A stretch of 64,000 bases of DNA from Macrostomum hystrix (taxonomy: Eukaryota; Animalia; Platyhelminthes), in NCBI GenBank assembly GCA_950097015.1, contig CATNEN010000026.1, positions 992,001-1,056,000 of the forward strand. Reading direction: 5' to 3'. Below the pieces are notes generated by a model. It was not told the DNA's origin. It ran no database searches and saw only the letters and a program-made list of their open reading frames with translations. The position numbers and the translations under genes are program-made. Positions 18,501 through 55,151 of the stretch are shown here, piece by piece (the first letter of the stretch is position 1; every line of letters begins with the position of its first letter).

Positions 18501-18581
18501 TCTATTGACTTACTAAATACTGTTTTATTATTGTAAAGTTGCCTTCAAGCTAAGGTCCCCAAAGGGGGCCTAAATTGCTAG

Positions 18582-21225: not shown

Positions 21226-21267
21226 TGTTGTTCTTATCAATTTTCTACAAAAGCAGCTAATATAAGA

Positions 21268-21690: not shown

Positions 21691-21780
21691 AAATAGGTTT
21701 TCGTTTTTGTTTGCTTTCAGGTGTGTTTTGTCCTTCTGCATTGCACAATATTTTTTGTCTGACCAGTAGTGCTCCCCGAA

Positions 21781-22580: not shown

Positions 22581-22584
22581 AAAT

Positions 22585-23145
22585 CAACGTCAACTGGGGA
22601 GTCATCATCAAAATGGGATCATGGTAAACTGGGGGATAATCGTCAACTGGGGGATCATTGTCAACTGGGGATCATTGTCAACTGTGGGATCATTGTCAAC
22701 TGGGGGATCATTGTCAACTGGGGGATCATTGTCAACTGGTGGATCGTTGTCAACTGGGGGTTCATTGTCAACTGGGTGATCATCATCAACTAGGGGATCA
22801 TTGTCAACTGGGGGAACATTGTCAACTGGAGGAACATTGTTAACTGGGGATCATCATCAATAGGGAGTCATCATCAACTGGGGGATCATTGTTAACTGGA
22901 GGATCTTTGTCAACTGGGGGATCATTGTCAACTGGGGGATCATTGTCAACTGGGGAGTCATTGTCAACTGGGGGATCATTGTCAACTGGGGGATCATTGT
23001 CAACTGGGGGATCATTGTCAACTGGGGGATCATTGTCAACTGGGGGATCATTGTCAACTGGGGGATCATTGTCAACTGTGGGATCATTATCAACTGGGAG
23101 ATCATCATCAACGGGGGGATCATTGTCAACTGGGGGTTCATTGTA
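22585..23145 (+). repeat. 18-bp satellite B, array 2
   Basis: Same unit as 21268; period 18. Confidence 0.93.
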
Positions 23146-23233
23146 GCTTTAAAAAGCTGTAAATTCAGCTGCTAAAAAGTATGTACTAGACGAATTAAAA
23201 GTATTTCTGCTCCCCGAAGGGGGGCAAAACTTG

Positions 23234-23560
23234 TGTCGTCTGGTATTGTTACATTCAGCTAGATTCGAGGTAGGCTTTCCCGCTGGGTATTTTTGAGTAG
23301 TCCATGTTCTGAAAACAATCATTTGTGTCTGATTTTCTAAGTTTGTTAATGGTTCCTATACTTTTTGCAAGCTCACCATTCTGTTACAATAGTGAGTCAG
23401 CGACCTGTCCGCAGGCTTTAGACTTTTCTTCCTTGCTACATACTTCATTGATTTAGTCAAATTCCTAAGTTTTTTATCTCTATTCATCCAAAAAATTTTA
23501 GGCGAAATTTCCGCTTTTGACTACCACGGACTCATCCAGCAGATGATTCAACTGAGACGT
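23234..23560 (-). repeat. Upstream/5' region of the Crypton-like element
   Basis: 23234-23302 is identical to 11137-11205; the continuation is homologous to 52678-52910. Confidence 0.7.
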
Positions 23561-24747
23561 GAGTTTGTCAACAGATGAGGTCTCAATTATTTCATGTAAC
23601 AATTTGTTTTATGTAGTCAGATTCTGTTGGCTTTTCAGGGCTTCGATGTAGTGCTGCTGTGTAACAGGATTCCAGATGGCTGGCCTTGGATAGTTTACGG
23701 TCTTGTACCCGCATGCCTCTTGCTGTGGCTTCATGTCCTGTATGCAGACTTTGTGGTAGTAAAATTGTGGTAGTGGCTGCTAGCTAGAGCTAGCGTTGTT
23801 GCACTTTACCCAATCAATGACTGTTGGTCAGTCATTCAGAAGAGTAATGAAATAGGTAGTGGGTAGTAATGAAATGTCCCGAAAGGTAATTGTTGACATG
23901 GACAAATCCAGTAACTCTGCTGCACCTCATTTGGTGTAGCACCATGCTAACCATGGACGGCATGCAAGCCAGCGCGGAAAAAGCCGAATGACCTTTTTTT
24001 ATCTCCGTAGTGTATTTCTAAATATAGAACATTCTATATAGGCTATCTCAATTAGGGTCGTCGTCTCTGGGGAAAACATGCACCGATTTAGAATACACGT
24101 ACAACACAGGTCCGTTTTGGTCTTGCTGGGGCCTTGGCTGGGTCTTGGCTGGACCAGACCCCCCTTTCAACATTATAGAAAGAGCCCAATGACACAAAAA
24201 TACCATCTATAGTGGCCAGTGAATATGCTTGTGGTTGCAGTATTATGGTTCATTGGCCTAGCTCACTGCTTTTTATTTCAGATGCAATCATTAAGCTAAA
24301 CTTGCTAAATCCCTCTTAAGTTTTGTTCAATCAATAAGAACTGAAATAGGTCTAGCCTGTTTTTTATTTACTGCATAGCTCCATATATGCTTGCAATGCC
24401 AAATCATAGGAGCTTGTCAAATAGTTATGTAATTCGCTGTTCAGCATTTAATCGTTAGCTAGCTAGCCGCCTATAGACAAAGTAGGCCTATTTTAATTGC
24501 AGATAGCAGCCACAAAGCACATCATTTAAATACGTCACAATGAAAAGAACTGTAACATAGGAATAAAATATTACATCAGTCTAATAACTAAGGAATACCG
24601 CTAAAGATTAGTTAAACTGGGTGGGTTAATTACGGAGATACTAAATACACAATTTAGTATCTTGTATTTTGTGTATAAGGTGACTCAAGCTAGGTTTGCT
24701 CGCAGGGCAAGTGTACTCACACAATCAGTCACAACATTAAGGTTAGG

Positions 24748-24790
24748 TTTAGGGTTACGGTTTGGTTTAGGGTTAGGTTTAGGAAAGGGT
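24748..24790 (+). repeat. Degenerate TTAGGG-like tract
   Basis: GGTTAGGTTTAGGGTTACGGTTTGGTTTAGGGTTAGGTTTAGG. Confidence 0.7.
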
Positions 24791-25016
24791 ATAATAGGTT
24801 GTTGTTAAAACGAATTCCATATTTGACTGGGCTGCTGATCAATTTCGAAAAACTCTGCCGCAGACTATTATTGGATTTAATCGAAATTCATAATAGATAT
24901 ACACTCGATTTGATTTGGCTTATTTTATGCGAATATTGAGCCTTATAATGAAACAAAAAAATTATTCAATATTTGGCTCTATTTAGGCACGCATTGGGAG
25001 ATAAAATAGGCAGAAA

Positions 25017-25611
25017 AGTAGTAGGGCGAATTATGACACTGCCGCATTAGCACTGGGGAGATAGGAAAGCAGTGTAAAAGGATAGGAGCGGGGCCTACAC
25101 AGTGGAGATATGCAGGCCAATCAGGTGGGTTTGTGCAGGAGCCCATTACTGTGCTTATGACACTGCCGCATTAGCACTGGGGAGATAGGAAAGCAATGTA
25201 AAATGATAGGAAGGAAACGAATGCACTGCAGAGATAAGAGAAATGGCTGGCCTATCTCTGTGCATTAGGGATGGATTAACACTGCAGGGATAGGAAGAGA
25301 GGCCGGCCTATCTCTTTGCGCTGGGTGATTAACACAGCAGAGATAGGAGTAGAGGGGGTGTGGGGGTGTGGGGGCGAAGCCCCCACATTTTAATTAGCCT
25401 TTAATTTTCTTGGTCACTCTGCCTCTGACAAACGGAACTCGCTGGCGCTGGCCCATTTAACCTCCAAGCAGCTGCACTGAGAGAACGTTAAATGCTACCT
25501 TGATGTCTGTGATGCAGGTCATTGCAAGGTCCTGCCTTGCTGGTCTATCTCTCTCTTTGCATTGGGGGTGGGTTAACACTGCAGGGATAGGAAGAGAGGG
25601 TCCGCCTATCA
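25017..25611 (+). repeat. Left TIR (595 bp)
   Basis: Reverse complement of 40963-41929 apart from 124-bp unit copy number and one substitution found (25433 vs 41141). Confidence 0.95.
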
Positions 25612-26034
25612 TTTGGCACTGCAAATAGTCCTCGGAAATTCCGTGGGGTCCTAGTGTGTGAACAAACGCCTATGTGTTTGCATAGTGGACTCTGTCGCAG
25701 GTAAATCTGTCTGAGAGGGAGAGAGACAGTCAGTGCAGTCTGATAAACCGATTGATTATTCAGTTCCACTCCTCCAATGGAATTTCACTTTTGCTCTGGT
25801 CTCTCATATTTTTTCATATGAAGACAACAACAAAACAACTGTTGGCCTGGGCAAAACAGTGAAACCACCATCTGTTTGCAGTGGGTATGGGCAACACTGT
25901 AGAGATAGGACAGTGGATGCGTAGCATAGATACATAAATTCAGCCTAATGTTATTATAAGTTTTCTTAGTATTACAAGTGTATGCGCCCACAGTCTCACC
26001 CACCCCATTACGTTAACCCACCCCACTCCGCTGG

Positions 26035-26042
26035 TATATAAG
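26035..26042 (+). promoter_or_regulatory. Candidate TATA box upstream of the PC4-like gene
   Basis: TATATAAG about 80 bp before an ATG in strong Kozak context (GCTACCATGG, ATG at 26124). Confidence 0.5.
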
Positions 26043-26123
26043 GGTGGGGATTTTTTATTATCGTTAAGAGAGGATTTCTGTTAAACTAATAGCCATTTCG
26101 TCACGGAAGTTTGACCTGCTACC

Positions 26124-26866
26124 ATGGATCTTAGCGACGGCTTTAAAGTTCAAGTACAGGATTCATCGCTATCCGACGCTTCTACTCTTCTGACGGGGAG
26201 CTGAAGCCTGGAATCCCTGGATTCAACTTGAACGTACACCAATGGGAGAAGCTGAAGCAGCTAAGGCGCCAACTCGTGCAGGCTGCAGTCAACCGACGAA
26301 ACGTCACTGCCAAGCTGGGCTCCGACAAGCTCGTAGAAGTCAAGCGAGGAGTCATCTGGCTCAAGCGACTGCCGGAGGACTGCACGGAGGATTTCCTGAG
26401 ACGGAATTCGATCGAGATGACTCCCCGTCTGTGGCGAGCGCTGTGGTGCCATGTCGACCGGATCAGTAGTGAGCTGAGAGGAAAGTCACCGGAGTGCGAG
26501 TACGAGCTGGACCCTCAGGACATCAAGACCGAGCCGGACATCGAGAATCGGGCGGGCCAACACTCTAGTGAGGATGCGGACGACGAGAAGACGCTGCTGA
26601 TTTCCGAGTCAGACAACGCAACCTCCGAACCGCTTCCAGCTGCAGCCCAACTATCGACGCCCAAAGCATTCGGCTGCATCCCACAGCAGGACAGCGACCT
26701 GTCTAAGGATCCTTACTGGTATCAGGCCCGTGCGGCTGCGGGTCTCAGTGTCAACTGCTTGATTGGAAGCCGCAAGCGCAAGCAGCCATGGCCTCTGCGT
26801 AGGAGTGATGCGATCAAGTTTCCGAAGCTGACGGATGACTCAGATGAAAACAAGGACAACGAGTGA
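26124..26866 (+). pseudogene. PC4/Sub1-like ssDNA-binding (transcriptional coactivator p15) domain protein with long C-terminal tail; one frameshift near 26150-26165
   Basis: MDLSDGFKVQVQ (ATG frame), then GFIAIRRFYSSDGELKPGIPGFNLNVHQWEKLK in the frame of ORF 26228-26866. This matches the PC4 core pattern IDIR.(F/Y)...G...PG.KGI.L...QW..L. Confidence 0.8.
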
Positions 26867-27147
26867 ATTTCCAAGTGACAGTACATGCATCAAATAATTT
26901 CTAACTTCATTCATTTGGTCAAATGCGCACTAAGCTTATTATCTATCCAGCCATATTTCAGCAATATAGGCTACAGAGTAATTTTGCTCTGTGCTTCTCG
27001 CAATAGCTAATTTAACTGTCTTTTTTGGCTTTATTTCTCGGTATATGTATCAAGACATTTTATAAACTACATTGTGTCAATACAACTTAAGAAAGTTGCT
27101 AAAGACAAAAAATAATATTGATTCTGACATCCTCTTCATGTTGGAAA

Positions 27148-28216
27148 ATGGAAAAGCTTTACTACAACCCCGCTCAGCCGGCCAGTTTCTCAGGTGCATC
27201 AAAGTTGCAGCAGCAACTAGGGAAAAATAATGAGGTGAAATCTAGAAAATACATTGAGCTGTGGTTAACTGAACAGCCCGTGCACACACTGCACAGGTCA
27301 GCTAGAAGGCGCTATCCCAGAGCACCAATCATAGTGCGATCCATTGACGATCAATGGGAGCTTGACTTGGTTGAGATGATTCCATTCGCAAAGTACAATA
27401 ATGGCTACAAGTACATTCTCACATGCATTGATGCGCTGTCCAAATGTGCATGGGCCAGGCCATTGAAAAATAAATCAGCTGCAGAAGTGCAGTCCGCATT
27501 CGAGAGCATTCTGAAATACTCAAAACGCCAGCCTCGCACAGTCCGCACAGATCAGGGGAAAGAGTTTCTTAACACTACTTTTCGCCAATTCTGCATAGAG
27601 CGGGGGATTCTGGCTTTCCCAACCAATAGTGAGCAGAAAGCAGCCATCATTGAGCGATGGAACAGAACTCTGAAGAGCAAAATGTGGCGGTATTTCACGT
27701 ACAAAAGCACCCTGCACTGGGTTGACGTGCTGTCCAAGCTAGTGAAGTCCTACAACAGCACTTACCATAGAAGCATAAAAATGGCGCCAACAAGCGTCTG
27801 CAAAGAGAATGAATCTGAGGTCTGGATGAACCTGTACGATGGGAAAGCAATTGAGACAATAGAGAAGCTGAAGAAACCGAAATTCTGCGACAATCAGTTA
27901 GTGAGAATTTCCAATGCACCCAGGGTGTTCCGAAAGGGCTACAAGGCCAACTGGAGCGAGGAAGTGTACACTGTGGTGGCCAGGGCCCCGAAGCACTACC
28001 CGTACATGTACAAGATTAGAGACATGAAGGGGGGAAGAGATTCGAGGCCTCTTCCATGAGCAAGAGCTGCAGGCTGTTCCGGACTCACAGCGGTTGTATG
28101 TGATTGAAAAGATTTTGAAGACTGAGAAACGTCATGGAAAAATCCGATATCTTGTGAAGTGGGCCGGCTACAACTCCACCGGGTGGGTGGATGAAAAGGA
28201 CTTAAGAAAAGTCTAG
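27148..28216 (+). CDS. Retroviral-like integrase with C-terminal chromodomain; +1 frameshift in a G6 run at 28029-28034
   Basis: YYNP...FSG, WELDL (D), RTDQGKEF (D), IERWNRTLK (E). After removing one G: KGEEIRGLFHEQELQ...YVIEKILK...YLVKWAGYNSTGWVDEKDL. Confidence 0.95.
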
Positions 28217-28263
28217 TAGTAAACCTATTTCTGTGATAAAGATATTTTCTATTATGAGAAACA

Positions 28264-29064
28264 GTGTTATCAACAGTGAACATGCTGAAGGTACCTAGTG
28301 ACTTTCATTTTCACCTGCCTTCACCTATTTACTTGGATCGAAATGTGGACTATGAGGCTGGTCTGGTTGAAATCCATCTGCCTGTTGCATGGTTCAATCT
28401 TGACGAACCTTACTGCATCACTGTCTCAGTTGGAAGAGAGCACGAGGCCCTGGTTCTTCAACCTGGACGCTTTGCTAGAGTGGAGGAGCTGGTGGAGTGC
28501 CTGAATGAGCTGCTGACCAACTCTGAGTCTCTGTTCTTTGATGCGAGAAGCGACAGAGATGCTGAAATGGAGGCAGACGAATCGGGTCTGCTGGGGCGGC
28601 GTGGTAGTGCAAGAGAGTTCGCTATAAAATTTGAAATATGCAACTCAAGAACTGTTGTGCAAAACAGTACCGCGGAAGCAGAGCTGTTTCTTCCTCCTAA
28701 CAAAATTCTGCAGTGGCTTGGATTCGGAAGTCAAGCAGTTACGATCCGACCTGGTCGCTTTGTGTCAAAGCATTACATTGGCTGCCCACGCACCAGCTTA
28801 ATTAATGTCCACTGCAGCATGGTTGAATCAACTAACTGCAACTGCAGCTCCCTGCTGAGAACTGTTAGCATGAATTCTGAAATTGAATGGGGTTACTATC
28901 TGAGCAAAGTGTTTAAGAAAACGACATTCTTTCCGATTCAGAGAGTCAATTTCCTACAAAGTATTCGAATTCAACTGCGAGACATTTTTGACTGCACATT
29001 TATCGCGCAGACTTGCAGTCCTGTTTTGCTGACCGTTCAGATTCGCGAAAAAAAAATTCAATGA
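28264..29064 (+). CDS. Minor capsid protein (penton, PX-like)
   Basis: SDFHFHLPSPIYLD...YEAGLVEIHLPVAWFNL and C-terminal INVHCSMVE...LLRTV...FFPI...IRIQLRD..., typical of the Polinton penton. The start is uncertain (ATG at 28282, or a frameshifted ATG at 28254). Confidence 0.85.
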   Translation: MLSTVNMLKVPSDFHFHLPSPIYLDRNVDYEAGLVEIHLPVAWFNLDEPYCITVSVGREHEALVLQPGRFARVEELVECLNELLTNSESLFFDARSDRDAEMEADESGLLGRRGSAREFAIKFEICNSRTVVQNSTAEAELFLPPNKILQWLGFGSQAVTIRPGRFVSKHYIGCPRTSLINVHCSMVESTNCNCSSLLRTVSMNSEIEWGYYLSKVFKKTTFFPIQRVNFLQSIRIQLRDIFDCTFIAQTCSPVLLTVQIREKKIQ

Positions 29065-29267
29065 ATTATCAGCAGCTGATTAGGCAATACTCGGGAGCTC
29101 AAACAGGAGCTCAAAAGTCAGTACTTTATGGCTGCGGGAGTTCTCCAGGGCTTATGACGTACCAGCCTCCACCAGATGCTTCATCATCATCATTAACAGG
29201 GCTGATCAATAGCAGCCGTGGCAAAACAAAAAGTCCTAAGAAATCGAAACGAAAGCAGAAAAAATGA
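29061..29267 (+). CDS. Small putative core protein with basic C-terminus
   Basis: MNYQQLIRQYSGAQTG...KTKSPKKSKRKQKK; ATGA overlap with the penton stop; located directly before the MCP. Confidence 0.6.
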   Translation: MNYQQLIRQYSGAQTGAQKSVLYGCGSSPGLMTYQPPPDASSSSLTGLINSSRGKTKSPKKSKRKQKK

Positions 29268-29431
29268 AAGAAGAATCAACTAGCCGGAACACTAGTCGCA
29301 AGAGAGGAAGGAAGACAAAGACTGGCAAGAAAAAGCTTAAGAAAAGGACTGACAAGAAAAGGAAAGCAACTGGAAGAAAGCGCAAAGTCAACAGAAAAAC
29401 TGTGAAACGGGTGCTCGACTCTCTGTCCTAG
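29264..29431 (+). CDS. 55-aa protamine-like basic protein, putative genome-condensing core protein (not in the ORF track)
   Basis: MKEESTSRNTSRKRGRKTKTGKKKLKKRTDKKRKATGRKRKVNRKTVKRVLDSLS: 26 of 55 residues K/R. ATGA overlap upstream; stop 3 nt before the MCP ATG. Confidence 0.65.
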   Translation: MKEESTSRNTSRKRGRKTKTGKKKLKKRTDKKRKATGRKRKVNRKTVKRVLDSLS

Positions 29432-29434
29432 GCG

Positions 29435-30718
29435 ATGGCTTACGGATTTAACCCAAGGCTCGATCTGTTCAAGGCGCCTGTGCTACAGACTTGTATTGAG
29501 AAATCTGCTTACGTTGACATTCATCCTGTGAATTCTATTGTTGCAAACTCACCCATTGAATTTGACTGCCACCAATCAGCTGATGAGTACACTGATTTAG
29601 TTAATTCATTTCTATACATTCGGTGTCGCATTGTGAGACTGAATGGTGCATTGATGAGGGAGGATGAGCTGGGTGAGGATGGAGTTGTTGCAGACCGCAG
29701 AGACAGCAATGTGCATCCGGAAAATTTTGTTCTATCTACAGCCTTCTCAGATGTAATTGTTAGCATTAACCAGCGAATCGTCTCTGGCGGTGACCAGCTG
29801 TACCCGTACCATGCCTACTTCAAAGCACTGATGAGCTCATCCGATGCCCAGCAACTCAAATTTCACCCTGCCGGTTTCCTGGAACCCGACTCAGCTGATG
29901 AGGACCACACTGAGAACCACAGGACCTCCCAATGGAGGGAATATGCGGGACCACTCCTTAGCGACATTTTCCAGTGCCCTGTGTTTCTGCTGAACAATTT
30001 GCACCTGCACATCAAACTGGTGCCCAGTGACGGAGCATTTGGAATCAGAGCTCCAGCCGCCAACGACACCGCCTACAGGATGGAAATATCGCACTGCATC
30101 CTCTATCTCCGCCGAGTCAAAGTTCTGCCCCACATCAGCTTGGCTCACGAGCAGGGGCTGGCTAATCAGAATGCGCTCTACCCAATTGAGCGAACTGAAA
30201 TGCAAAACTTCATCCTGCCCCAGGGAATTCAGTCAAAGAATATTGAAGGATTCACACATGGAAAGCTCCCGAAATTCATCATGCTGGCCTTCGTCAACCA
30301 CCGAGCCTTCAATGGGCACCATCATTCCAGCCCGTTCCAGTTCCAAAACTTCAACCTGAGTCAGCTTGCTCTCAAGAAAGGGGGTGAATCCATGTGCCAC
30401 GGGGCATTTACACCTGAGAACAATTCGTTTGTGAGAGAATATTTGCACTACCTGAAAAGCTGTCAATCTGCGAGCCACACCAACTCGGTTCCATCGATTC
30501 CCTACCAGCTCTTCTCAAACGAGAACACTGTGTTCGCATTCGATCTGACACCCGAGGGAGCGGCTCTGTGGTACGGGCAGAAGGAGGGAAACCTGCGGCT
30601 GGAGATTCGGTTCCGACAGGCCTTGGATGAAGCCGTGTCCCTGATTGTCATGTGTGTGTATGACTCACTGATTGAGGTCACCAAGCACAGGGAGCTATTG
30701 CTGGACTATTCATCTTAA
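29435..30718 (+). CDS. Major capsid protein (double jelly-roll, PY)
   Basis: LDLFKAPVLQTCIE...DIHPVNSI...PIEFD...EYTDL..., LYPIERTE, LPKFIMLAFV...AFNG...PFQFQNFNL, FAFDLTP, GNLRLEIRF. ORF intact, 427 aa. Confidence 0.95.
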   Translation: MAYGFNPRLDLFKAPVLQTCIEKSAYVDIHPVNSIVANSPIEFDCHQSADEYTDLVNSFLYIRCRIVRLNGALMREDELGEDGVVADRRDSNVHPENFVLSTAFSDVIVSINQRIVSGGDQLYPYHAYFKALMSSSDAQQLKFHPAGFLEPDSADEDHTENHRTSQWREYAGPLLSDIFQCPVFLLNNLHLHIKLVPSDGAFGIRAPAANDTAYRMEISHCILYLRRVKVLPHISLAHEQGLANQNALYPIERTEMQNFILPQGIQSKNIEGFTHGKLPKFIMLAFVNHRAFNGHHHSSPFQFQNFNLSQLALKKGGESMCHGAFTPENNSFVREYLHYLKSCQSASHTNSVPSIPYQLFSNENTVFAFDLTPEGAALWYGQKEGNLRLEIRFRQALDEAVSLIVMCVYDSLIEVTKHRELLLDYSS

Positions 30719-31263
30719 TGAAAGTTGATATGGATGCCCTTCAGCTGCGTTCTCTTGCTAGATCCTTCCTGCCCAGCAATCGAATCTTGATAATCACCCT
30801 TTGCTTAAAGCAAAAGACCTGGATAATAAACTGGGATGAAGGAAGAATGCGTGAGAAAATTCCCAATCACAACAGAATCATCAGCTTCTTCTTGATAAAA
30901 CACAGCGTCTCGTTTGGACACTGGGTTGCATGTTTTGTTGGCAATGGAAATGTAGTTGAATTATTTGATTCTCTCGGTTGGAATGCACAGACTCTGAGTG
31001 CCATCCACCAATTTTTTGCTAATAAATTCAAGTTTCCTTTCCGCATGCTTTGCAATGTTAACCGAATCCAATGCAGTCAGTCGGACAAGTGCGGACTTTT
31101 CTGTCTCTATTTTGCATATCAAAGATTTCTTTTGAAGCGATCATTCGAATGGATTCTGCGAAATCTACACGTGAAAGAAAACTGCCCGTTGAATGACAGA
31201 ATGCTTTGTCAGTTTGAAGCCAGCTTAAGAAAAAGAGGTTTATGGCGAAAAAGAAATAGTTGA
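30718..31263 (+). CDS. Adenain/Ulp1-like cysteine maturation protease
   Basis: GHWVA (H), LFDSLG (D), RIQ...DKCGLFC (Q, C); TAATG overlap with the MCP stop. Confidence 0.92.
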   Translation: MKVDMDALQLRSLARSFLPSNRILIITLCLKQKTWIINWDEGRMREKIPNHNRIISFFLIKHSVSFGHWVACFVGNGNVVELFDSLGWNAQTLSAIHQFFANKFKFPFRMLCNVNRIQCSQSDKCGLFCLYFAYQRFLLKRSFEWILRNLHVKENCPLNDRMLCQFEASLRKRGLWRKRNS

Positions 31264-31280
31264 AATAAAGCCTAAGTGAG

Positions 31281-31928
31281 ATGGAGTCAGAAAGAGTGTA
31301 CTATGATGTCCGCCTGCGGCAGGGCAGCTGCATGATGGTCTGCGGACCCACCAATGCTGGAAAGACAACCTTCGTGAAGCATCTAATACAGTACAGGGAT
31401 GTATTATTCGACGTCCAGCCTGGGAGAGTGCTCTGGTACTATGGAATCGCACAGCCAGCGCATGCTGAGTTGAGCAGTCTTGGTGTGCAATTGTATCAGG
31501 GATTACCCACTAACTTTGAGAGCTCATTGATGAGCAATGATCTGGTCATTTTTGATGACATGATTGATGAAACTTCTAACTCTGCCTCAATGCGAAATAT
31601 TTTCACTGGACTCGCCCATCACCTGCCATGCTTTCTTGTAATGCTCACTCAGAATATGTTTTTCAAGGGCAAGGAGTTGCGGACCATGAGCTTGAACGCG
31701 ATGTACTATGTGATCCTAAAAAACCCCAGAGACCAGCTGCAGATCGCTGCATTGGGCAGGCAGTGCTTTCCATAGAAGCCTGGCTTCCTGCTTGAGGTCT
31801 TCAAGCATGTCACAGCGCAGGGCAGGGGGAGCTACCTGTTTCTGGACTTTCACCCTTGCACTCCCGATGAGCTGCGAGTGCGAGCCAGAATTTTGCCCAA
31901 TCAGAGGCCACATCTGGTTTATGCTTAA
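31281..31928 (+). pseudogene. A32-like FtsK/HerA genome-packaging ATPase with an in-frame TAG at 31773-31775
   Basis: Walker A GPTNAGKT, Walker B LVIFDD, KNPRD motif. The frame continues past TAG as KPGFLLEVFKH...GSYLFLDFHP.TPDELRVR to TAA at 31928. Confidence 0.93.
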
Positions 31929-31971
31929 GAATATAGGTTGAGAAATGCTATTAGCCTGAATTATTGCAACT

Positions 31972-32295
31972 ATGGAAGTGTTCGAAGCTCATCAAAGTTT
32001 ATTTGAAGTCCTTGCCTCACACAAATATACAATTAGCCTCAAGCGCGCAATAATACAGCTGAGTCCGAAAGAAGCTTGCACTTTTCTTGTCGAGGCCTGC
32101 CACAACCTATTGGAAGAGAATTTGCCATTTTCTCTTGTTGAAAAGACAGCGCTATTGAAATCTAAAAATATAATCCGCAAGATTGCCCGGCAAAGAAAAC
32201 AGAGTGACTTACTCAAAGCTTCTTTTATCAGAATCCTCCCCACTCTGCTGAAACTTGTGAAAAAGAAGAGGAAAAGAGATGCACAAATTCAATGA
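31972..32295 (+). CDS. Conserved small Polinton protein (PW-like)
   Basis: LVEACHNLLEENLPFS...KTALLKSKNIIRKIA pattern, basic; expected position after the ATPase. Confidence 0.65.
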   Translation: MEVFEAHQSLFEVLASHKYTISLKRAIIQLSPKEACTFLVEACHNLLEENLPFSLVEKTALLKSKNIIRKIARQRKQSDLLKASFIRILPTLLKLVKKKRKRDAQIQ

Positions 32296-32956
32296 GATGG
32301 TTCTGATCTCAAGGTCCGAGTATGAAATGCTGAGGAGGAGTGCCAAGCCCATTGAGTCTGTGAGTGACACGGCCATAAAGCAGGCACAGATGAAATGCGA
32401 TGATATCCTGTTGGCCCAAGACTGCCCAGATGATATGAAGACAGCCCTGTACCAGAGTGCAATGCAAAGCTTGCTGGCAAAGCGAAAGCAGACAGGAAAG
32501 GAAGCTGCATCAGAAGAGAAGAAAGCGAAGTTGATGAAGGCTGAGATGCCTCAAAGAAGCTGGGAGGAAAAGATCTACCAGTCAGTGCCACAGAAGCTCA
32601 AACCGAGGGCTCGGAGTCTATGGGCCATCCTATCTGACAGCCAGTCTGCTATCCGGGTGTCCGATAATGGAGAGGTGAACATTTCTGGGAACTCGATTCC
32701 TAACTAAAACATTGTCGATTTGATTCTGCACACAGTGAAGGACTCAAAAAGTTCTGGTCAGCCTGTTGGATGGCCCGCTTTCAGTGACTTGCTTCGCCAA
32801 AAAAATCTCAATGTGCCTATGTCAGCTGTTGGAAAATCTGTACATCAAGAAATTTTTGATACAATTGAAGATGCACAGCCTTCACTCAAAGGATTGGGCA
32901 ACAGGTCTGCATGGCTGAGGTTGAACAGGGGGAGAAAACAGTATTTAAGAAAGTAA
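32279..32956 (+). pseudogene. Conserved Polinton protein (PZ-like) with an in-frame TAA at 32705-32707
   Basis: MVLISR..., DDMKTALYQ, SVPQKLKPRA..L, GEV.ISG..IP*NIVDLI, P.GW.AF..LL...NVP..AVG. ORFs 32279-32707 and 32720-32956 share one frame. Confidence 0.75.
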
Positions 32957-32997
32957 CGATCATCGAATTATGCCGGTTTCGAGGCACTCGCTTGAGC

Positions 32998-33849
32998 ATG
33001 AACTACATAGACATTCAGGGCTTCCCGTGCGATGGAGAGAAGGATGACTTCATCGTGAAGGAGTTGGCGATCCTTGAAGTCAGGAAAGGAAGCTATCACC
33101 TTTCACACCACGTGTACGCTCCACCGTATGATTGGCAGAGAGTTTCACCTGACATGCGAATGTACTACAAACAGCTTTCGAAAAATCTACATAAATTCAA
33201 GTGGACCGATGGAACCCGGCCATATTTGCAATTAGCTGACGACATTGTGAGCATTGGTAGCGGCGTCAACTGGACAAGCGGAGAGAAAAAATCGATTTTT
33301 CTAACTGAGTTGTTGGGCAGACTGGTCTACAACTTAGACGATTTGGTCTCACATTCTAACAAAGACTCTGATACCGCATGTGCAGTGAGCAACTCATTGC
33401 TGCACTACAGCTGGCTGAAACCAACAGCTTGCATCAACTTAAGAAGCGACAAGTGCTCATGGCATAGAAGCTCAAGCAATTGCAGTAGCAGCAGCAGCCA
33501 GACTTGCAATCAGAATGATGATCAAAGGCGCTGCAACCTTGAGAATCACCAACCTGGTTGGTGGAGTGGATCTGAGACTGACTGGAGGCAGAGGCGCCCA
33601 GCTTCCTCTAAGGGAGCTGGCTCTCAGCATGGCTCATGTGATCTACCGACCCGTGTGGCCCAGAGTGCTCATCAAGCAGATGCGGAATCCCAGAGTTACC
33701 CTACTGCTCTACCCTACTGGGCAACTGAGCATCTGTGGCGCAAAGAGCTACGCCGACTCGGTCAGGGCTGCCCGGCGCTTCGTCGCTATGCTGCATCGCC
33801 GAGTGCCGGCTCAGCTGCTGCCTCGTCAAGCTTTCGGTGTGAGGATTAA
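32998..33849 (+). CDS. DEDD/DnaQ-fold-like accessory protein, probably catalytically altered; long C-terminal read-through overlapping the TBP gene
   Basis: YIDIQGF...FIVKELA...HHVYAPPYDW...HKFKWTDG..PY...GEKK.IFL...VYNLDDL. The first acidic motif is D-I-Q rather than D-x-E. Confidence 0.6.
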   Translation: MNYIDIQGFPCDGEKDDFIVKELAILEVRKGSYHLSHHVYAPPYDWQRVSPDMRMYYKQLSKNLHKFKWTDGTRPYLQLADDIVSIGSGVNWTSGEKKSIFLTELLGRLVYNLDDLVSHSNKDSDTACAVSNSLLHYSWLKPTACINLRSDKCSWHRSSSNCSSSSSQTCNQNDDQRRCNLENHQPGWWSGSETDWRQRRPASSKGAGSQHGSCDLPTRVAQSAHQADAESQSYPTALPYWATEHLWRKELRRLGQGCPALRRYAASPSAGSAAASSSFRCED

Positions 33850-34090
33850 GACTATCACTGCGCATGGAAAACTTGCAATTCAAAATGTGCTAAATCTAAC
33901 AAGTTTGTCACATCTGCTACCAAATGCTGAATATGAACCCGAATCATTTTCTGCTTTAATTTTCAAATTACGATTTTGCAAGTGTCTGCTTTTTCACAGT
34001 GGGTCATTTGTTCTAAGCGGTGCTCGATCTTTGAATCAGCTACGAACCGACAGCATCCGTCTGCGCGAATTAGTTTTTTCTCTATTATAA
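33515..34090 (+). CDS. TATA-box-binding protein (TBP)-like protein, both saddle repeats, ORF intact (191 aa)
   Basis: Repeat 1: ITNLVGGVDL...LRELA...YRPVWPRVLIKQMRNPRVTLLLYPTGQLSICGAKSYADSVRAARRF. Repeat 2: IKTITAHGKL...LNLTSL...AEYEPESFSALIFKL...CLLFHSGSFVLSGARS. Colinear with the TBP core. Confidence 0.92.
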   Translation: MMIKGAATLRITNLVGGVDLRLTGGRGAQLPLRELALSMAHVIYRPVWPRVLIKQMRNPRVTLLLYPTGQLSICGAKSYADSVRAARRFVAMLHRRVPAQLLPRQAFGVRIKTITAHGKLAIQNVLNLTSLSHLLPNAEYEPESFSALIFKLRFCKCLLFHSGSFVLSGARSLNQLRTDSIRLRELVFSLL

Positions 34091-34771
34091 AATATAATCG
34101 GAAAATAATTTATCACGCACTTTGTTTGTCACCATACGGTTGACAAAAACAACGTTAACTGGAGCTCAAACTTCTTCAAGATGTATTTATTACATTTATT
34201 ATCCTCAACAAGTTGAATATGAAACAAAAAGATTGAAAACCCAACCGTAATGTAACCGAACATGAAATTAATAAAAAAACATTATAATACACAATTAAAG
34301 AAGCAAATGACGCTGAAAATGCGAAACCCCGGATGCAAACATTAAGCGCATACTAAAAAAAAAAAACTGTCTATGACAACGCAGATAAAAAAGCAACTAA
34401 TTTGCATCCTTATCGAGATGAGGAAGGATGATCACTAAGTTGATTTTACTTTAACGAGAGAATTAAAATTGTTACAGAGAAACGAGATTTTAATTAAAAA
34501 AATTAAAAATTAAAAAATAAGTTCAATTTATTTGTATCACGCGTTCTTCAAATGGAAACATTTGAAACAATTACTATTCAGATGCAACGCTGGCATGAAT
34601 GAAAAAAGTAGTATTAGTAGTCTCCGAAACAAGATCCAACATACTGAGCATGCTAGCAAATCTGAGCATTCCAGAAACAGAAAACTGTTTAAAATTTAAA
34701 AGTAAAAACGACAATTAAAAAAAGCAACAATTGTCCACGACAACTTCTAGCCGTCACTACTTTTTATGAAG

Positions 34772-37700
34772 TTAAGCAAACCTGATGCGCTTCTGCTGGC
34801 CATGGAAATCCTGGGTCAGAGCATAGTGGCCATAGGGAAGACTTCGATTGCGGCTCAGCCATACTCGCTTGTCTTCCCAAACTGAGAGGCTTCGCTTCTC
34901 CAATACTGATGTGTAAACGCTGTGCTTCTTTGAGACAATTGTGGTCATGGCAACCGTCTGCTCCTGTTTCGAATTGAGCGCGGCAGCGTAGTCAGCATGA
35001 GTGATTTGAAGCTTCACAACAGATTGTTTCACGCCCTTGGCAGTTTTTTTGGCTTTCGCAGTTGAACTCTCAGCGGGAAGAAATGAATACAGCTTTGGCC
35101 GCAGCAGGACCCATTCTTGGTAGGTACCACCGCAGGATTCATCTTTGACGCAGCCAAGCTTGCCTTTCAGTTCCTCGGAGTAGTGCGGATGGTCTCGGGG
35201 ATAGTTCGACGAATCAAGGATATTTTCCTCTCTGAGCTTCGGGATCACATGCGATGTGAGCTCGTGATTTCTGAAGGCGAGAAAAAACGAGTCCGTGTCG
35301 CCACCGCATACCATCATGTCCTTGGAGCCGTCTGGTTCACAGAAAAGCGGCCGGAGCTTATCATACAGCAGGCTGTACATGCACATCTTCGACAAGTCGA
35401 GCACTGCCTGGCCGACGAAAATGGCCTTGTCAAGCTTTACTTTGTCTTTCCTGAACTGAAAGATGGATAGATTTTCATTTACAATAAAAACTCCGGTGCA
35501 ATTTGTTCGAGAGGAATAAGTTTCAACTTGAGTAGCGCTTGTGCAGATGCGCACATCACACCGCTTGCGCACGTTCTCCATCGTCTTTCCGAACAAAGAA
35601 TTGTTCTTTAGTTTGTAGAAATCCTTGCTAAAATCGGATGTTGCAAGTGCCCTCTTGCTATTATTGCTTGCAATGTACGAAGCAAAGATTTTCTTCTGGT
35701 TGAATTCAATCATCTTGAGAATTGACTTGATCTTCATTCCGTGCTGCAGGTAGAAGCGCAAGATGGTGCTGTGGACAATATAGCCATCCTTGTCCGAACA
35801 GGTCAGCAGAAGTTTCTCTGTTGCAGAGAACTTAAAATCGACATTGCCTGAGCGCTGCTCCGCGATTTGCTTCCACAATTCCAGCATAAACGGTGAAAAC
35901 TGGTCAACCTGCGGCTTAGATTTCTCTGGCGCAAAAGGTAATTCCTCTGTCACATCATGAATATCGGCTGGATATTCAAGGTCAACCTGCACGAGATAGG
36001 CTACTTCAGCTTCAGGATCGAGAGATATGAACTTTTTGGCGTCCCAAGACTGCAGTTCCTTTTCTGTCACCCACCTGAATCCGCTGCATGAGACTCACGC
36101 AGTCCTGCTGCTCATCATAGTCAGGCAAACTTTGGTTGTTTGCTTTAACATGGTGCACATTAACGAAAGACATGCCACCTCTAATGCCTTGTTCGAATAA
36201 ATGGTACATGTCAGGGTCTGTTAGCTGTTCGAGCACAACACCAGTTGATTTGAGAGCAGAGTCGTAAGACAGACCAGGTGTAGTTAGATAGTGCACTGGA
36301 TCGAGCCCATCTTCAGATAGACTGGCGTGACGAAATGCCTCAAAAATGTCTGCTAACTGGCGCACATCCATTTCCAGGTAGGCTAGCATGTAGTCTCGCA
36401 GACTACGACATTCGAATGCGGCCCATGCTGCCTTTGCTCGATGGTATTCCTCATCAGAAATCGCACAGTCGGTAAGACGGTTGAAAAATGCATTTTTCGG
36501 TGGCAGACTAGTCTGTTCAAGAATGTTGAACTCGGTCAGGAAATCATACGGAAAGACTCCCTTTTGGCGAATAATGTCTTTTGAAAGCAGAGGCCTAGAC
36601 TCTAGCAGCTGCAGAGTCAGTTTACAGTCGTTCTCTGAAAGATTGGAAAACAAATTTGCCAAACTTCCCTTTAGAAAGCAAAGAGAATCGATGAACTGAA
36701 TGGTAAACATTAGTGGCAGTGTCTTCCCGTTTTTTGTGTAGGTGCCAACAGGAAACTCCACCCGAAGTGATAGATAGCGCTCCGAAGTCTGTGGGACAAC
36801 ATTGAGTTTCCAATTTGGCATGCTACCAAGTGCGGTAGAAAGAAGAAGATGCAAATCGTAACCGCCCAAATTGTGAAAAATGACAGGCAAAAACCTGCGA
36901 CGAAGCTGAGCCCGCATGTTGCACTCCTGGCACGCGGCTCCTTTGAACTGCCCCGTCAGGTGATCATGGTCAAAATGTTTGTCAGCGGAACTGCTGAACT
37001 CAGATTGACAGTAGTGGCATGATGTGGCGTCATTGAAATCTTTCATGTCCGTTAGAGAAGATTTATCCGCTGCTTGGTGACTGTGCACCCGGTTCCACTG
37101 AAAGATTTCCCTGGAAAGCTTTTCAAGGGAACTGAGAAAAGCAAGGATGCACTCCTTGGGATCAGCATTGCAAAATGATTGGTACATGTCTGCTTTAGGA
37201 CGAAGTTCAGGCCCCTTCATGCACGCTCTGGAAACCACTAAGTAGGCTGCTGCACATGGCTCATGTTGAGCGATCAGATCGGCAGAGTCTGGTTTTTGTT
37301 TCAAAATGGCTTCCAGGTCGGCATAGGTCACAAATGGTGGACTGATTGTCTTCTGAAATTCCTTGAAGTTGATTTCGTTTGCTCCAGGAACAGGAAGGAC
37401 TTCCTTGATGGGATTTTCAGAAGCGATTTGGCATTCTCTGCTGTGCTCTAGAAGTCTCTCGCTGCAGTAGAATGAGGTCAAGCATCTGGTGCACCACTTT
37501 CTCATGGCAAGGCCGGCGCGGCTGTTCATCAGCCTGTCAAAGTTATTAATTGCACACCAGTGCTCTAATCCATAGCTGCCGCTGACCAACAGAAGCATTA
37601 GATGAGTTCGACCTCCTGGCTCATGCTTGAGACGACGGAGCAAGCTCACGTTACCTCGCTGCCATAGAAATGCAGAAATGCAAATTCCTGGATTGCTAGA

Positions 37701-38380
37701 CTCAACGAGATCAATGTCAGCGACACTGACGGGCATGGAGATTCCAGCGAAGTCAAGCTCGTTCAACCATTCATCGTAAGACGACAGTCTGCCAGGCGAT
37801 TTTTTTATCTTTGGATCGGCACTGTGCAATGCGGCAAGACAGGCGTACATGAAGCAGTCGTTGCCGGTACTTGGCGGATTGACGACAGCTTTCTTGTTTT
37901 TCAGACTGGCTGGGAGGTTAAATCTGGATGTTCTACCCTGGCGGAATCGAATCGGATTGTACCTAGCTAGATGTATATCCAGGAAGTTTATCTGAGTTAG
38001 TGTCCAACCACTACCATTCGTGTTCAACATGCTGCAAATCCTTTCCAACTCTTGCTCCTGTGCAACCAGCCAATCATGCAGATATTGATAGGTGGCAGTG
38101 GCATCCACACTCTTGTCAATGGTCTGCAGTTTGCAGCTGACCCACTTGTCTTCTTCTGTTAGAATCTGTCCATCCTTTATTCGCGCCATACGGATATTCG
38201 ACCTTGGCTGAACTTTATAATGGTGAATACCGATTCTTCGCTGCACTTCATCAATGACTATGCTTCCAGCCTGGACAAAAAACTCGGATGGCAGAGTGCC
38301 TGCATTATCTGGCCTCAGTCTTAATATTTCTAGCGATTCATTGAATGCTTGGGAAACTGTGCTGAGATGAACTGCCTGAC
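34772..38380 (-). pseudogene. polB: Protein-primed B-family DNA polymerase, main exon; motif A deleted with a frameshift at about 36085-36092
   Basis: ExoI YADLEA, ExoII FHNLGGYD, ExoIII YLEMDV, GIRGG, motif B KLKNNSLFGK, motif C GDTDS. The expected DxNxLY-containing segment between CVSLM and CSGFRWV is missing. Confidence 0.96.
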
Positions 38381-38560
38381 CTAGAAACGGGAGTTGCAAA
38401 AAAAACATCAGTTTTTTTCTCCCTTCACCTTGTCAATTTCTAAAACAAAACGGTAACTACCTACAGTAATCACACATTAAGTTTTAATATCCCTTTGCTC
38501 AAGCTAACTGCACTTTGCGAAACTTAAAATATTTTACCAACTTATTAATTTCCGGCTTAC

Positions 38561-38807
38561 CATCATTTTCACCTTGCTCCGAGTGACCAGTGACCGAGCT
38601 TCTAGCGCCGCTGCTTCCTGGACTGCCACCATTCAAACTGAAACCGCTGGAGCCATTGCCATGGCCGCTGCTTGACTCAAAATCTGACAGACTTCCTTCC
38701 AATGATTCCGACAGATTTGTGCACGAAGACTCAGAAAGGTCCTCCTCCGACTCGGAATAGTCAGATTCATCTGACTCGGACAAGTGTGATAGAGTAAAAC
38801 TTAGCAC
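38561..38807 (-). CDS. Acidic Ser-rich exon predicted to splice in frame onto polB (intron 38381-38560)
   Basis: Donor G|GTAAGC at 38560 and acceptor TTTCTAG| at 38381, both phase 1. The join reads ...EQGEND-G-QAVHLS; the 5' boundary is uncertain. Confidence 0.7.
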
Positions 38808-39301
38808 AAAGAAGAAGCAAGTATGCTTTGTTATTTATTTTTCCAAAGATGTAAGCTTAATTGGATCGTTTATTTTAACAAGTTGCATTAATACAGAACG
38901 AGCAATCATAGCCAGAAAACCAATTCAGTAACGCATGCATAACGAGCAGGATGTTTTTAAGCCATACTGAAAGTCAGGGGAAAATGCAACTGAAGATAAA
39001 GCAGTACAGTTATAGAGCAGAATTAGCTGACAATTCGGTTGCACATTCCTTCACCAGTCATGATCTAACCACATCTAACCTTTATATTGACATATTTTGT
39101 CATGCCCCCTCTCTTCATCTTTTCTAAAAGCCTTTTTGAAATTCAAAAATTTTAAAAAGCTTTAAAACGCATTTTCTTTCATTCTTCGCAGTCTACGCTG
39201 GCGCAGGCTCAGGTGTGAAAGATTGACATTGAGAAACAGATTGCGCAAGTGGCGCGAGATCAAGTTTAAAGTCGAAATAAAGACAAAAAATGGCATTCAA
39301 T

Positions 39302-40189
39302 TTAGACTGGTGTGACAGTAATTTTGTTGCCATCAAGCACAACAACGTAGCCAGCCCCGGTTACGTATGGTAGCAGCAGATTTACAGTAAGAGCACTTGA
39401 AATCGCATTACCACCGTTGATAATGTTGTCTTCTGGAATGCTGACTGTCGGCACTTCTATTTCCGCTAGCAGTTCGGCCAGCTCGTCCCGTGCAACCGAG
39501 CCAGCTTCAGCGGTGGAGACGGCTGGAACCGCAGCCAAAGCAGCTGGAGCATCAGGAGTCAAGGCTTCGGCGAGCGGAGTGGCAATAGCATTGCCGACAG
39601 ACTCAATGTCCATATCGCTGCCTTCTTCTTCGATCATTGGACTGTCAGGCTGAACTAACATCTGCTTTCCTCTGATTGCCGGCACGCGAGCAGTGACTGC
39701 TGCAGCAGCTCCAGTCACCACGTCAAGGTCTCCGCTGGTGCTAGGGCCGTCCCTGTCAGGTGGACGCTGACTCGTCGTCATGGCGGGCGCAACGAAGTCC
39801 TCCCCAGAGCTAACACTCTCACTTCTGGGTGCCCTTGGTCTAATAATGCCATTGATCACCTGACTCAGTACATTGGACCGTTGCTTAGCAGCGACCACCT
39901 CAGTAGCCTGTTGCTTTGCCGCAGCCATAACTAATCGGCGGAAAGAGCGCGCTGCTTCTTCGTTGCCAGGCAGCAGCTGATGCCCGCGGTGCCGATTGAT
40001 CTTGGAGTTTTTTGAGCATTTGCCAAGTCCACGGAAAGGAGCTATTTCGGAGCACTGCCAGCAGACTGTCCATCTTGAAAGATTGGTGCATCTTGAATGC
40101 CGGTCGGCCTGCAGTCCTCCTTGCTTGCACTTCTTGCAGTCAGTGCACACCTCATAGTGCCAAGTGGATGCCATTATATTTATTTTCAA
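39302..40189 (-). CDS. Polinton accessory protein with N-terminal Cys/His cluster and acidic disordered C-terminus
   Basis: CTDCKKC...DRHSRC...WTVCWQC, GHQLLP, IRGKQ; a homolog is present in the deleted element at 9986-10792. Confidence 0.7.
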   Translation of the reverse strand: MKINIMASTWHYEVCTDCKKCKQGGLQADRHSRCTNLSRWTVCWQCSEIAPFRGLGKCSKNSKINRHRGHQLLPGNEEAARSFRRLVMAAAKQQATEVVAAKQRSNVLSQVINGIIRPRAPRSESVSSGEDFVAPAMTTSQRPPDRDGPSTSGDLDVVTGAAAAVTARVPAIRGKQMLVQPDSPMIEEEGSDMDIESVGNAIATPLAEALTPDAPAALAAVPAVSTAEAGSVARDELAELLAEIEVPTVSIPEDNIINGGNAISSALTVNLLLPYVTGAGYVVVLDGNKITVTPV

Positions 40190-40780
40190 AAATTAATTTT
40201 TGCTTGTTAAACTAGACTAATAAATCGCAGCAGAAGCGTTGGATTTGGGTGCTTATGTACCCAGACCACTGCCCTGGTTTGCAATACAGACCCATTTCCC
40301 ATGCAGCATTTTGATCAACGATCAGCGTTATCTATTCCCGGCTTCCATATTATTGAGCGGTCAGTGTGAGCATGGGGTTTGTGGATTTTATGACTGTCTC
40401 GCGCAGACCTCGACCTCTAATTCAGTTTACAACTTAATTGGGGCGCACAAGCAGGTAGGCAACCACGGCTGAACCTAGCAACAGCTCCTTAACTTGGAGG
40501 TGTGGGCTTATTGTTCAGTTTCCTTTTCACAAATAGCAGGCCTTGTTTTCAATTAGGCTAAATAGATCCAACCTTATGCAGAAGCGTAGCAAATGCTATT
40601 TGTTAAGAATTCGCGAACAAATGCATAATAGAGATTAGTAAAAACTTTGCAGCACTATTTCCAATAGCTTTTGTGAGCATATTCTACCCACTCTGTTCAC
40701 TTTTTCTCTGAATACGACCCATATATTCCCAGTGACAATAAGTTATGTTAGTCTGCCTCCCTTCACTCTTTAATATCTCT

Positions 40781-40900
40781 GCAAGTGCGGCAGTGTCATA
40801 GGCACAGCAATGGGCTCCTGCACTTTCTGTGCAAGTGCGGCAGTGTCATAGGCACAGCAATGGGCTCCTGCACTTTCTGTGCAAGTGCGGCAGTGTCGTA
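40781..40900 (+). repeat. 50-bp subterminal tandem repeat containing the TIR core motif
   Basis: GCAAGTGCGGCAGTGTCATA at 40781 and 40831, and a one-substitution variant at 40881. Confidence 0.9.
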
Positions 40901-40962
40901 ACATCCCATACATCTGATTATGATTCGGTAAGCCTTAACCATTTAGCATTTGCTGTGCCTAG

Positions 40963-41929
40963 TGATAGGCGGACCCTCTCTTCCTATCCCTGCAGTGTTA
41001 ACCCACCCCCAATGCAAAGAGAGAGATAGACCAGCAAGGCAGGACCTTGCAATGACCTGCATCACAGACATCAAGGTAGCATTTAACGTTCTCTCAGTGC
41101 AGCTGCTTGGAGGTTAAATGGGCCAGCGCCAGCGAGTTCCATTTGTCAGAGGCAGAGTGACCAAGAAAATTAAAGGCTAATTAAAATGTGGGGGCTTCGC
41201 CCCCACACCCCCACACCCCCTCTACTCCTATCTCTGCTGTGTTAATCACCCAGCGCAAAGAGATAGGCCGGCCTCTCTTCCTATCCCTGCAGTGTTAATC
41301 CATCCCTAATGCACAGAGATAGGCCAGCCATTTCTCTTATCTCTGCAGTGCATTCGTTTCCTTCCTATCATTTTACATTGCTTTCCTATCTCCCCAGTGC
41401 TAATGCGGCAGTGTCATAAGCACAGTAATGGGCTCCTGCACAAACCCACCTGATTGGCCTGCATATCTCCACTGTGTAGGCCCCGCTCCTATCCTTTTAC
41501 ACTGCTTTCCTATCTCCCCAGTGCTAATGCGGCAGTGTCATAAGCACAGTAATGGGCTCCTGCACAAACCCACCTGATTGGCCTGCATATCTCCACTGTG
41601 TAGGCCCCGCTCCTATCCTTTTACATTGCTTTCCTATCTCCCCAGTGCTAATGCGGCAGTGTCATAAGCACAGTAATGGGCTCCTGCACAAACCCACCTG
41701 ATTGGCCTGCATATCTCCACTGTGTAGGCCCCGCTCCTATCCTTTTACATTGCTTTCCTATCTCCCCAGTGCTAATGCGGCAGTGTCATAAGCACAGTAA
41801 TGGGCTCCTGCACAAACCCACCTGATTGGCCTGCATATCTCCACTGTGTAGGCCCCGCTCCTATCCTTTTACACTGCTTTCCTATCTCCCCAGTGCTAAT
41901 GCGGCAGTGTCATAATTCGCCCTACTACT
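40963..41929 (-). repeat. Right TIR (967 bp = 595 + 3 x 124)
   Basis: 124-bp units start at 41411, 41535, 41659 and 41783; the terminal core is at 41907. Confidence 0.95.
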
Positions 41930-42044
41930 CAGAAATATACAGGGGAAATCCCGCTCAAAGAAGGGATCTAATAAAAATTGAAAAATTGAATTAAAAATTG
42001 AAATAAAAAGGCATGCATGCAGGCCACACCGAGCTGCTTTCTCT

Positions 42045-55140: not shown

Positions 55141-55151
55141 GTGACCATCAT

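Follow-up and report, generated by a model that had tools for sequence, protein, structure and literature searches.

The element and its genes

We analysed a 64,000-nt stretch of Macrostomum hystrix DNA (assembly GCA_950097015.1, contig CATNEN010000026.1, positions 992,001 to 1,056,000), hereafter the window, in which a Polinton/Maverick element encodes a divergent TBP and carries a TATA-like box, TTAAGAA, ahead of eight of its genes. The element spans window positions 25017-41929. Inverted repeats at both ends open with AGTAG; the arms of these terminal inverted repeats (TIRs) are ~99% identical, with 4 mismatches in the 596 nt of the longest arm pair, and a 6-bp target duplication, CAGAAA, lies at 25011-25016 and 41930-41935. 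Several features by which Polintons are recognised were found: long TIRs beginning AG with a 6-bp target duplication, a Pfam DNA_pol_B_2 match (protein-primed polB, type B2) together with an rve integrase, both genes being broken in this copy, and an adenovirus-type protease with a packaging ATPase (Peptidase_C5; a Walker ATPase with Pox_A32). The element is composed as follows.

25017..25626, +, left TIR, starting AGTAG
26035..26042, +, canonical TATA-like TATATAAG, 89 nt before the PC4 ATG
26064, +, one-mismatch box TTAAGAG, upstream of PC4
26124..26866, +, PC4-like gene with an acidic tail (Pfam PC4, E 6.7e-8); in this copy the domain and the 5' end are in different frames
27148..28216, +, integrase with chromodomain (Pfam rve, E 2.6e-14; chromo, E 3.6e-6); broken near 28030
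28282..29064, +, putative penton/minor capsid protein, labelled by position alone; open frame
29061-29267 and 29264-29431, +, two basic, Lys/Arg-rich core-like ORFs
29435..30718, +, putative major capsid protein (MCP), 427 aa; open frame; 25 homologs
30718..31263, +, C5 cysteine protease (Peptidase_C5, E 5.6e-4, below the cut-off, which its relatives pass); open frame
31281..31928, +, packaging ATPase (Pfam Pox_A32, weak, E 0.01); in-frame stop 31773-31775
31972-32295, +, PW (presumed label); open frame
32279-32956, +, PZ (presumed label); in-frame stop 32705-32707
32998..33849, +, DEDD-like ORF with a Cys/His C-terminal part; frame continues past the TBP start
33515..34090, +, divergent two-repeat TBP, 191 aa (Pfam E 1.7e-24); open frame
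34091..34771, no strand, convergent spacer, AT-rich; AATAAA on + at 34270; TTAAGAA absent
34772..38432, -, protein-primed polB in two ORFs meeting at ~36012-36094
38499..38834, -, acidic Ser-rich frame, possible 5' exon
39302..40174, -, Cys/His protein with acidic tail; homolog in a remnant Polinton at 9986-10843 (E 9e-11 and 8e-14)
40948..41929, -, right TIR, holding a 124-nt unit in 4.5 copies

The Pfam order along the element is PC4, rve integrase, chromodomain, C5 protease, A32-like ATPase, TBP and polB type B2. The TIR, the target duplication and this order bear out the ends, gene order and two-strand layout given in the first-pass annotation, which was also correct about the two basic core ORFs (29061-29431) and the AT-rich spacer at which the two blocks converge: the 1-kb bin containing the spacer has a GC content of 0.364, compared with 0.42-0.52 in the remaining bins of 25001-42000. 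A sigma-70 scan of the spacer returned matches at chance level, the model being bacterial and irrelevant to a eukaryote. The closest named proteins to the element's genes are from Macrostomum lignano.

The gene labels of that annotation fared unevenly. Those of PC4, the integrase-chromodomain protein, protease, ATPase, TBP and polB are backed by Pfam matches, some of them weak, but penton, MCP, PW, PZ and DEDD found no family confirmation; these we presume from size, position and Polinton gene nomenclature. Family searches including PHROGs gave no match for the penton-like ORF, and the MCP found none in the PDB or PHROGs. Capsid_N (Pfam) was matched by only one of 21 aligned MCP relatives, weakly (E 0.032), the single match bearing on the double jelly-roll major and single jelly-roll minor capsid proteins of Polintons; the MCP relatives adjoin Polinton integrase, protease and polB. 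The DEDD-like protein has no Pfam match and no assigned family, and homologs of it are present in 8 of 33 distant loci described below. Its frame overruns the TBP start by 335 nt, and the same overrun was seen in the M. lignano gene model P0010.

The window copy carries lesions at the PC4 5' end, the integrase/chromodomain junction (~28030), the two in-frame stops of ATPase and PZ, and the polB split. The frames of TBP, MCP, protease, penton and PW are open. Because contigs of other copies differ at the PC4 5' end, the integrase/chromodomain junction and the ATPase stop, these breaks are, as judged from sequence, lesions of the window copy or assembly errors and not the state of the family. 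Copies are numerous: 313 contigs of run X1 align on the element, of which 134 are <95% alike, and a 12,377-nt contig of the divergent copy X6 spans integrase to TBP.

The element TBP and the TTAAGAA box

The first-pass annotation had proposed that the element carries a TBP of its own, and this was upheld by two Pfam repeats, a saddle fold, an open frame, a third-position bias and relatives in the same context. The predicted structure (pLDDT 82.8) superposes on Sulfolobus TBP (1mp9) with a TM score of 0.85 and on human TBP with 0.80, and the model also matches viral TBP-like folds. Both the Pfam repeats and the predicted saddle place the protein in the TBP family. Identity to plant and archaeal TBP is ~31-36%. 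Five near relatives were found among 516 candidates, four of them full length with 72-79% identity and open frames of 190-202 aa; a sixth relative, P0012, is 55% identical. In M. lignano, gene models fuse TBP to its neighbours (P0008 with PZ; P0010 with DEDD; P0011 with MCP, ATPase and PZ pieces), from which the same gene context follows for other copies. Differences within the TBP frame favour third codon positions (12 of 17 listed, 19 in total, in X6, p 0.002; 9 of 14 listed, 16 in total, in X5, p 0.017), X5 and X6 sharing most of these differences, so that the two tests are not independent. The sequences thus support a TBP kept under selection in the same gene context in other copies. Since differences in the overlap favour third positions of the TBP frame, the DEDD-like overrun is probably not selected as protein.

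The DNA face of TBP is among the most conserved surfaces in biology. In the element TBP it is partly rebuilt. Residues N69, V71, L114, F190, L205, F207 and V213 are retained and F116 is Tyr, whilst V122 is replaced by Ser, T124 by Cys, N159 by Thr, V161 by Thr, P191 by Ser and T215 by Ser; the numbering is that of yeast TBP in Table 1 of PMC12529657, placed via plant TBP with an offset set from recall. The position of F99 aligns with Pro49, with Trp48 adjacent, and is not clearly retained. The set of four intercalating Phe and two central Asn expected of the family is therefore incomplete (F190, F207 and N69 kept; F116 Tyr; N159 Thr). The altered residues are nearly invariant across six family members. 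Conversely, the TFIIB stirrup glutamates E141 and E143 are retained, corresponding in the mapping used to yeast E186 and E188, and the stirrup E-P-E is kept in all ten further element-type TBPs tabulated. In the available parts of PMC12529657 the stirrup glutamates are numbered E184 and E188, and herpesvirus ORF24 is without them.

In a quick tree of 153 rows, for which 3 of 145 search matches were dropped for short cover, the element family forms one long-branched clade (support 97) and five distant Polinton TBPs form another (99); at this sampling the tree neither joins the two clades nor places the donor. No relative was found when viral_contigs were scanned with TBP and MCP alignments, or metagenome_contigs with the TBP alignment.

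A shared non-TATA promoter motif, which the first-pass annotation had predicted, was found at the sequence level as TTAAGAA before eight plus-strand genes: integrase, penton, core 1, MCP, ATPase, PW, DEDD-like and TBP.

27087..27093, +, TTAAGAA, 61 nt before the integrase ATG; intergenic
28202..28208, +, TTAAGAA, 80 nt before the penton-like ATG
28913..28919, +, TTAAGAA, 148 nt before core ORF 1
29236, +, variant CTAAGAA, 28 nt before core ORF 2
29337..29343, +, TTAAGAA, 98 nt before the MCP ATG
31225..31231, +, TTAAGAA, 56 nt before the ATPase ATG
31925..31931, +, TTAAGAA, 47 nt before the PW ATG; coincides in part with the stop ending the ATPase frame
32945..32951, +, TTAAGAA, 53 nt before the DEDD-like ATG
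33439..33445, +, TTAAGAA, 76 nt before the TBP ATG

All 8 sense-strand copies in the 8191-nt plus block sit 47-148 nt upstream of an ATG. Such upstream positions make up 16.3% of the block, giving a chance of 0.163^8 = 5e-7 for 8 of 8. Dinucleotide shuffles (1000) contained a mean of 0.75 and a maximum of 4 copies, compared with the 8 observed. TTAAGAA also ranked first among all 7-mers when these were counted without bias in 12 upstream windows (7 of 12), and none of 2000 shuffles rose above 6. The sense strand of the 5629-nt minus block holds no TTAAGAA, and no exact copy lies upstream of the minus-strand genes for polB and the Cys/His protein; outside the element, 4 copies occur in 47 kb. 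TTA-AGA accounts for 4 of 25 Leu-Arg pairs (0.6 expected). Because the boxes fall in all three reading frames of the ORFs that they overlap, protein coding does not explain them.

Distant Polintons, the PC4-like protein and the surrounding window

A scan with the MCP returned 33 metagenome loci at 25-48% identity, all partial. TBP is present in six: in L007, L017 and L028 it directly follows DEDD, in L023 and L026 it heads the block, and L013 has it as a reverse-strand fragment. The five distant TBPs that form their own clade are shortened; the four tabulated have N159 replaced by Ser and V161 by Thr, and keep the stirrup. TATAAAC, and not TTAAGAA, is common to the distant Polinton genes. It lies upstream of 10 of 15 ORFs in L023, 7 of 11 in L017, 6 of 10 in L026, 7 of 12 in L027 and 4 of 6 in L007, and occurs over these five loci 39 times in sense and never in antisense. 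It also precedes 15 of 20 MCP starts, a count in which two locus pairs are duplicates and two misses probably reflect a wrong Met. L022, a 4.2-kb fragment, has neither TATAAAC in its 6 upstream windows nor a TBP. On the sequences compared, the two TBP clades appear to go with two boxes, TTAAGAA and TATAAAC. The distant Polintons also hold or adjoin an E2 ubiquitin-conjugating enzyme, a RING finger and a dual-specificity phosphatase (L023:225-722, L026:1665-2168, L027:919-1260).

The PC4 domain of the window element is also matched by PC4/Sub1 entries in the PDB, and by sequence it is a PC4 ssDNA-binding domain. Its open relative P0183 (272 aa, 42% identical) consists of an N-terminal PC4 domain, a second conserved segment and an acidic tail, a layout that differs from PC4/Sub1, with which the core domain is shared. 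By eye, the conserved segment (window 26300-26490; P0183 residues 65-125) resembles a second PC4 repeat. A tandem repeat was, however, unsupported: the hhalign probability was 0.4%, Pfam gave no match and a single-sequence model reached a pLDDT of 40. The first Atlas match for P0183 residues 1-130 was a 134-aa PC4 cluster at 0.89, which we treat as a lead only.

Replication by a protein-primed polB with strand displacement requires an ssDNA-binding protein. Domains of the PC4 type bind ssDNA, and the PC4 homolog of phage T5, which shares the core domain, acts in replication according to the parts of PMC7549692 available. For these reasons the element's PC4 is likely to be its ssDNA-binding protein, with a predicted early expression from the canonical TATA; it may have a role in transcription beside this one.

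Elsewhere in the window, a further Polinton, from a related family and with an internal deletion, lies at 6438-11107, with AGTAG TIRs and a 6-bp duplication, CCAACA. It holds polB N-terminal pieces ~70% identical to those of the main element and the Cys/His homolog; no plus block and no TTAAGAA were found in it, and it is likely non-autonomous. Fragments just to its left (5538-6372) presumably belong to a tyrosine-recombinase/Crypton-type element. A DDE transposase fragment to the right of the main element (44152-44451) is, we assume from its motif, Tc1/IS630-like, and an inverted-repeat pair at 48993-55406 (134 and 100 nt, 89-92%, ~6 kb apart) is probably a DNA transposon. Long satellite arrays with 23-, 18-, 34- and 10-nt units occupy 12519-24783 and 55910-63998, and a short TTAGGG run (24737-24783) ends ~230 nt left of the element.

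A predicted late-gene switch

We propose, at a probability of about 0.6, that the element TBP reads TTAAGAA and recruits host TFIIB and RNA polymerase II, acting as a one-protein switch for late genes. Host TFIID would transcribe the early genes that lack the exact box, namely polB, the Cys/His protein (a candidate early activator) and PC4 behind its canonical TATA. The element TBP would then bind TTAAGAA and switch on the integrase, capsid, core, ATPase, PW and DEDD-like genes, with positive feedback through the box before its own gene. At the centre of the DNA face, residues that are smaller and more polar may make room for the G of TTAAGAA, and the retained C-terminal stirrup (E141, E143) would dock host TFIIB. 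PC4 would work separately, as the ssDNA-binding protein of strand-displacement replication. As several of its genes are broken, the window copy would depend on other copies. Candidate comparison sequences for a preference for TTAAGAA are TATAAAAG and TATAAAC. A wider proposition, that DNA face and box co-vary between Polinton families while the TFIIB dock stays fixed, giving the smallest viral initiation system and a late-gene programme in animal Polintons, is offered tentatively on the basis of the sequence comparisons.

Several observations weigh against this switch or its wider form. The replacement at F99 (Pro/Trp) may mean that the N-terminal kink residue is lost. The 160 nt upstream of the protease and of PZ contain no box. 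Distances to the ATG are just 28 nt for the variant at core ORF 2 and 148 nt for the box of core ORF 1, and two further TTAAGAA sites, at 40603 (+) and 27572 (-), are unexplained. The stretch containing the TBP box did not align in the divergent copies X5-X8, apart from a 160-nt piece of depth 2.7 starting at 33444. Amongst the distant loci, the partial contig of L027 carries TATAAAC and no TBP, and in L007 and L017 a canonical TATATAAAG precedes TBP where TTAAGAA does so here, which bears on the source of the first TBP. TATAAAC is itself near-canonical, close enough to TATA for host TBP, and the pairing of TBPs with boxes is drawn from two families (n = 2).

The chief alternative is that TTAAGAA is a promoter element recognised by some host factor, or else by the Cys/His, DEDD-like, PW or PZ protein of the element. 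The TBP would then serve as a helper, or as a decoy that sequesters TFIIB or lowers host transcription. A heavily altered DNA face, F99 and N159 included, beside an intact TFIIB stirrup is what a decoy needs, the conserved Cys/His protein with its acidic tail is on hand as another reader, and EBV BcRF1 fails in vitro to distinguish TATA from TATT (from the portions of PMC4893493 available). The near invariance of the altered residues, however, fits a new specificity better than a loss, and in its length, strand and distance the box resembles a TATA element, with a different box in each of the two TBP clades; we consider this alternative unlikely. A passenger TBP, captured and without a role, would accord with a long-branched clade whose origin the tree does not place, but is largely refuted by frames open at 55-80% identity, the third-position bias, a fixed context in several copies and the TBPs of distant Polintons. 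The box might instead act in RNA processing, as a polyadenylation or trans-splicing signal by which a polycistronic transcript of the plus strand is resolved. Trans-splicing occurs in flatworms, and the stop of the preceding gene is no more than 40 nt from five of the boxes. Most boxes, though, are inside the upstream coding sequence, ahead of its stop; the last gene is followed by no box and the integrase box is intergenic; and the 40 nt downstream of the boxes are 20-55% pyrimidine, with no YAG in 3 of 8. Such a signal is accordingly very improbable.

The first-pass annotation had read TBP and PC4 as a joint private initiation kit bracketing the virion module, in which PC4 would be a coactivator or promoter-melting factor for the virion genes. 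Within the element's own family the two genes do travel together and not sporadically: both are on single contigs of the divergent copy X6, the PC4 link being read from a depth table in which the depth value of the 12,377-nt record recurs over a short part of the PC4 gene. Cellular PC4 is, moreover, a known coactivator, and the element's PC4 gene has the one-mismatch TTAAGAG beside its canonical TATATAAG. It does not stand behind an exact box, however, and the co-occurrence does not extend to the 33 partial distant loci, six of which have TBP: PC4 was absent from phmmer matches over all their 959 ORFs, and from Pfam matches of 80 locus ORFs and 43 more of L023 (in all 57 of the 93 L023 ORFs of 40-399 aa, that locus being without its right end). 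Because PC4 was not found in the distant Polintons and the position of TBP varies there, the bracketing kit is unsupported. Cellular PC4 has a regulatory N-terminal part, for which the element's domain, beginning at the N-terminus, leaves no space. The replicative role of the phage T5 homolog (PMC7549692, in part) likewise speaks against a kit, and we regard it as improbable.

With the Polintons/Mavericks described as adintoviruses (Starrett et al. 2021, PMC8502044, available parts) the element shares AGTAG TIRs, a 6-bp duplication, polB, an rve integrase with chromodomain, a C5 protease, an ATPase and capsid-like genes. Unlike here, those parts give no TBP function, promoter box or PC4; the legend of Fig. 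5 (MELD-virus), in a section on non-animal datasets, has a 'TBP' label with no function given, and a word search of the supplement returned no TBP, TATA, PC4 or Macrostomum. No account of a Polinton TBP paired with a promoter box of its own was found in the Polinton literature searched, which included parts of 10.1101/697771, PMC10675990 and PMC11662393, most subscription papers and Repbase reports being outside its scope.

The two-repeat saddle is common to cellular TBP/TRF proteins (PF00352) and the TBPs of NCLDVs. In contrast to cellular TBP, the element protein has its central DNA-contact residues replaced. NCLDVs use their TBPs with an RNA polymerase of their own, and the window element encodes none. 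From the sections of PMC12529657 and PMC4893493 consulted, the late system of beta- and gammaherpesviruses (KSHV ORF24, EBV BcRF1; TATT/TATTWAA) likewise combines a virus-encoded TBP-fold protein, whose DNA face is more polar, with host Pol II and a TATA-like box of non-canonical sequence upstream of structural genes (here at the sequence level only). In the same portions of PMC12529657, however, ORF24 is a 752-aa protein of a six-protein complex lacking the TFIIB acidic residues, whereas the window TBP is a bare 191 aa and keeps them. Homology between the two is limited to the TBP fold, and the element is known from sequence alone. The large ORF24-type protein with five partner activators and the loss of TFIIB residues, which mark the herpesvirus viral pre-initiation complex (vPIC), were not found here. 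By analogy, the element likely works like the herpesvirus vTBP/TATT system but is not a vPIC member.

These findings address the question of whether animal Polintons run a regulated, virus-like cycle that ends in particles. A conserved TBP, paired with a matching box ahead of the genes for capsid, packaging and integrase, offers a direct way in: start sites and a late gene class are predicted from the boxes, and the switch itself from the TBP. A natural TBP variant reading a G-containing box would, if true, be informative for TBP specificity. If the proposed pairing of TBPs and boxes is correct, the pairs would be naturally occurring and mutually orthogonal, and a life cycle in stages, like that of a virus, would be implied for these transposons.

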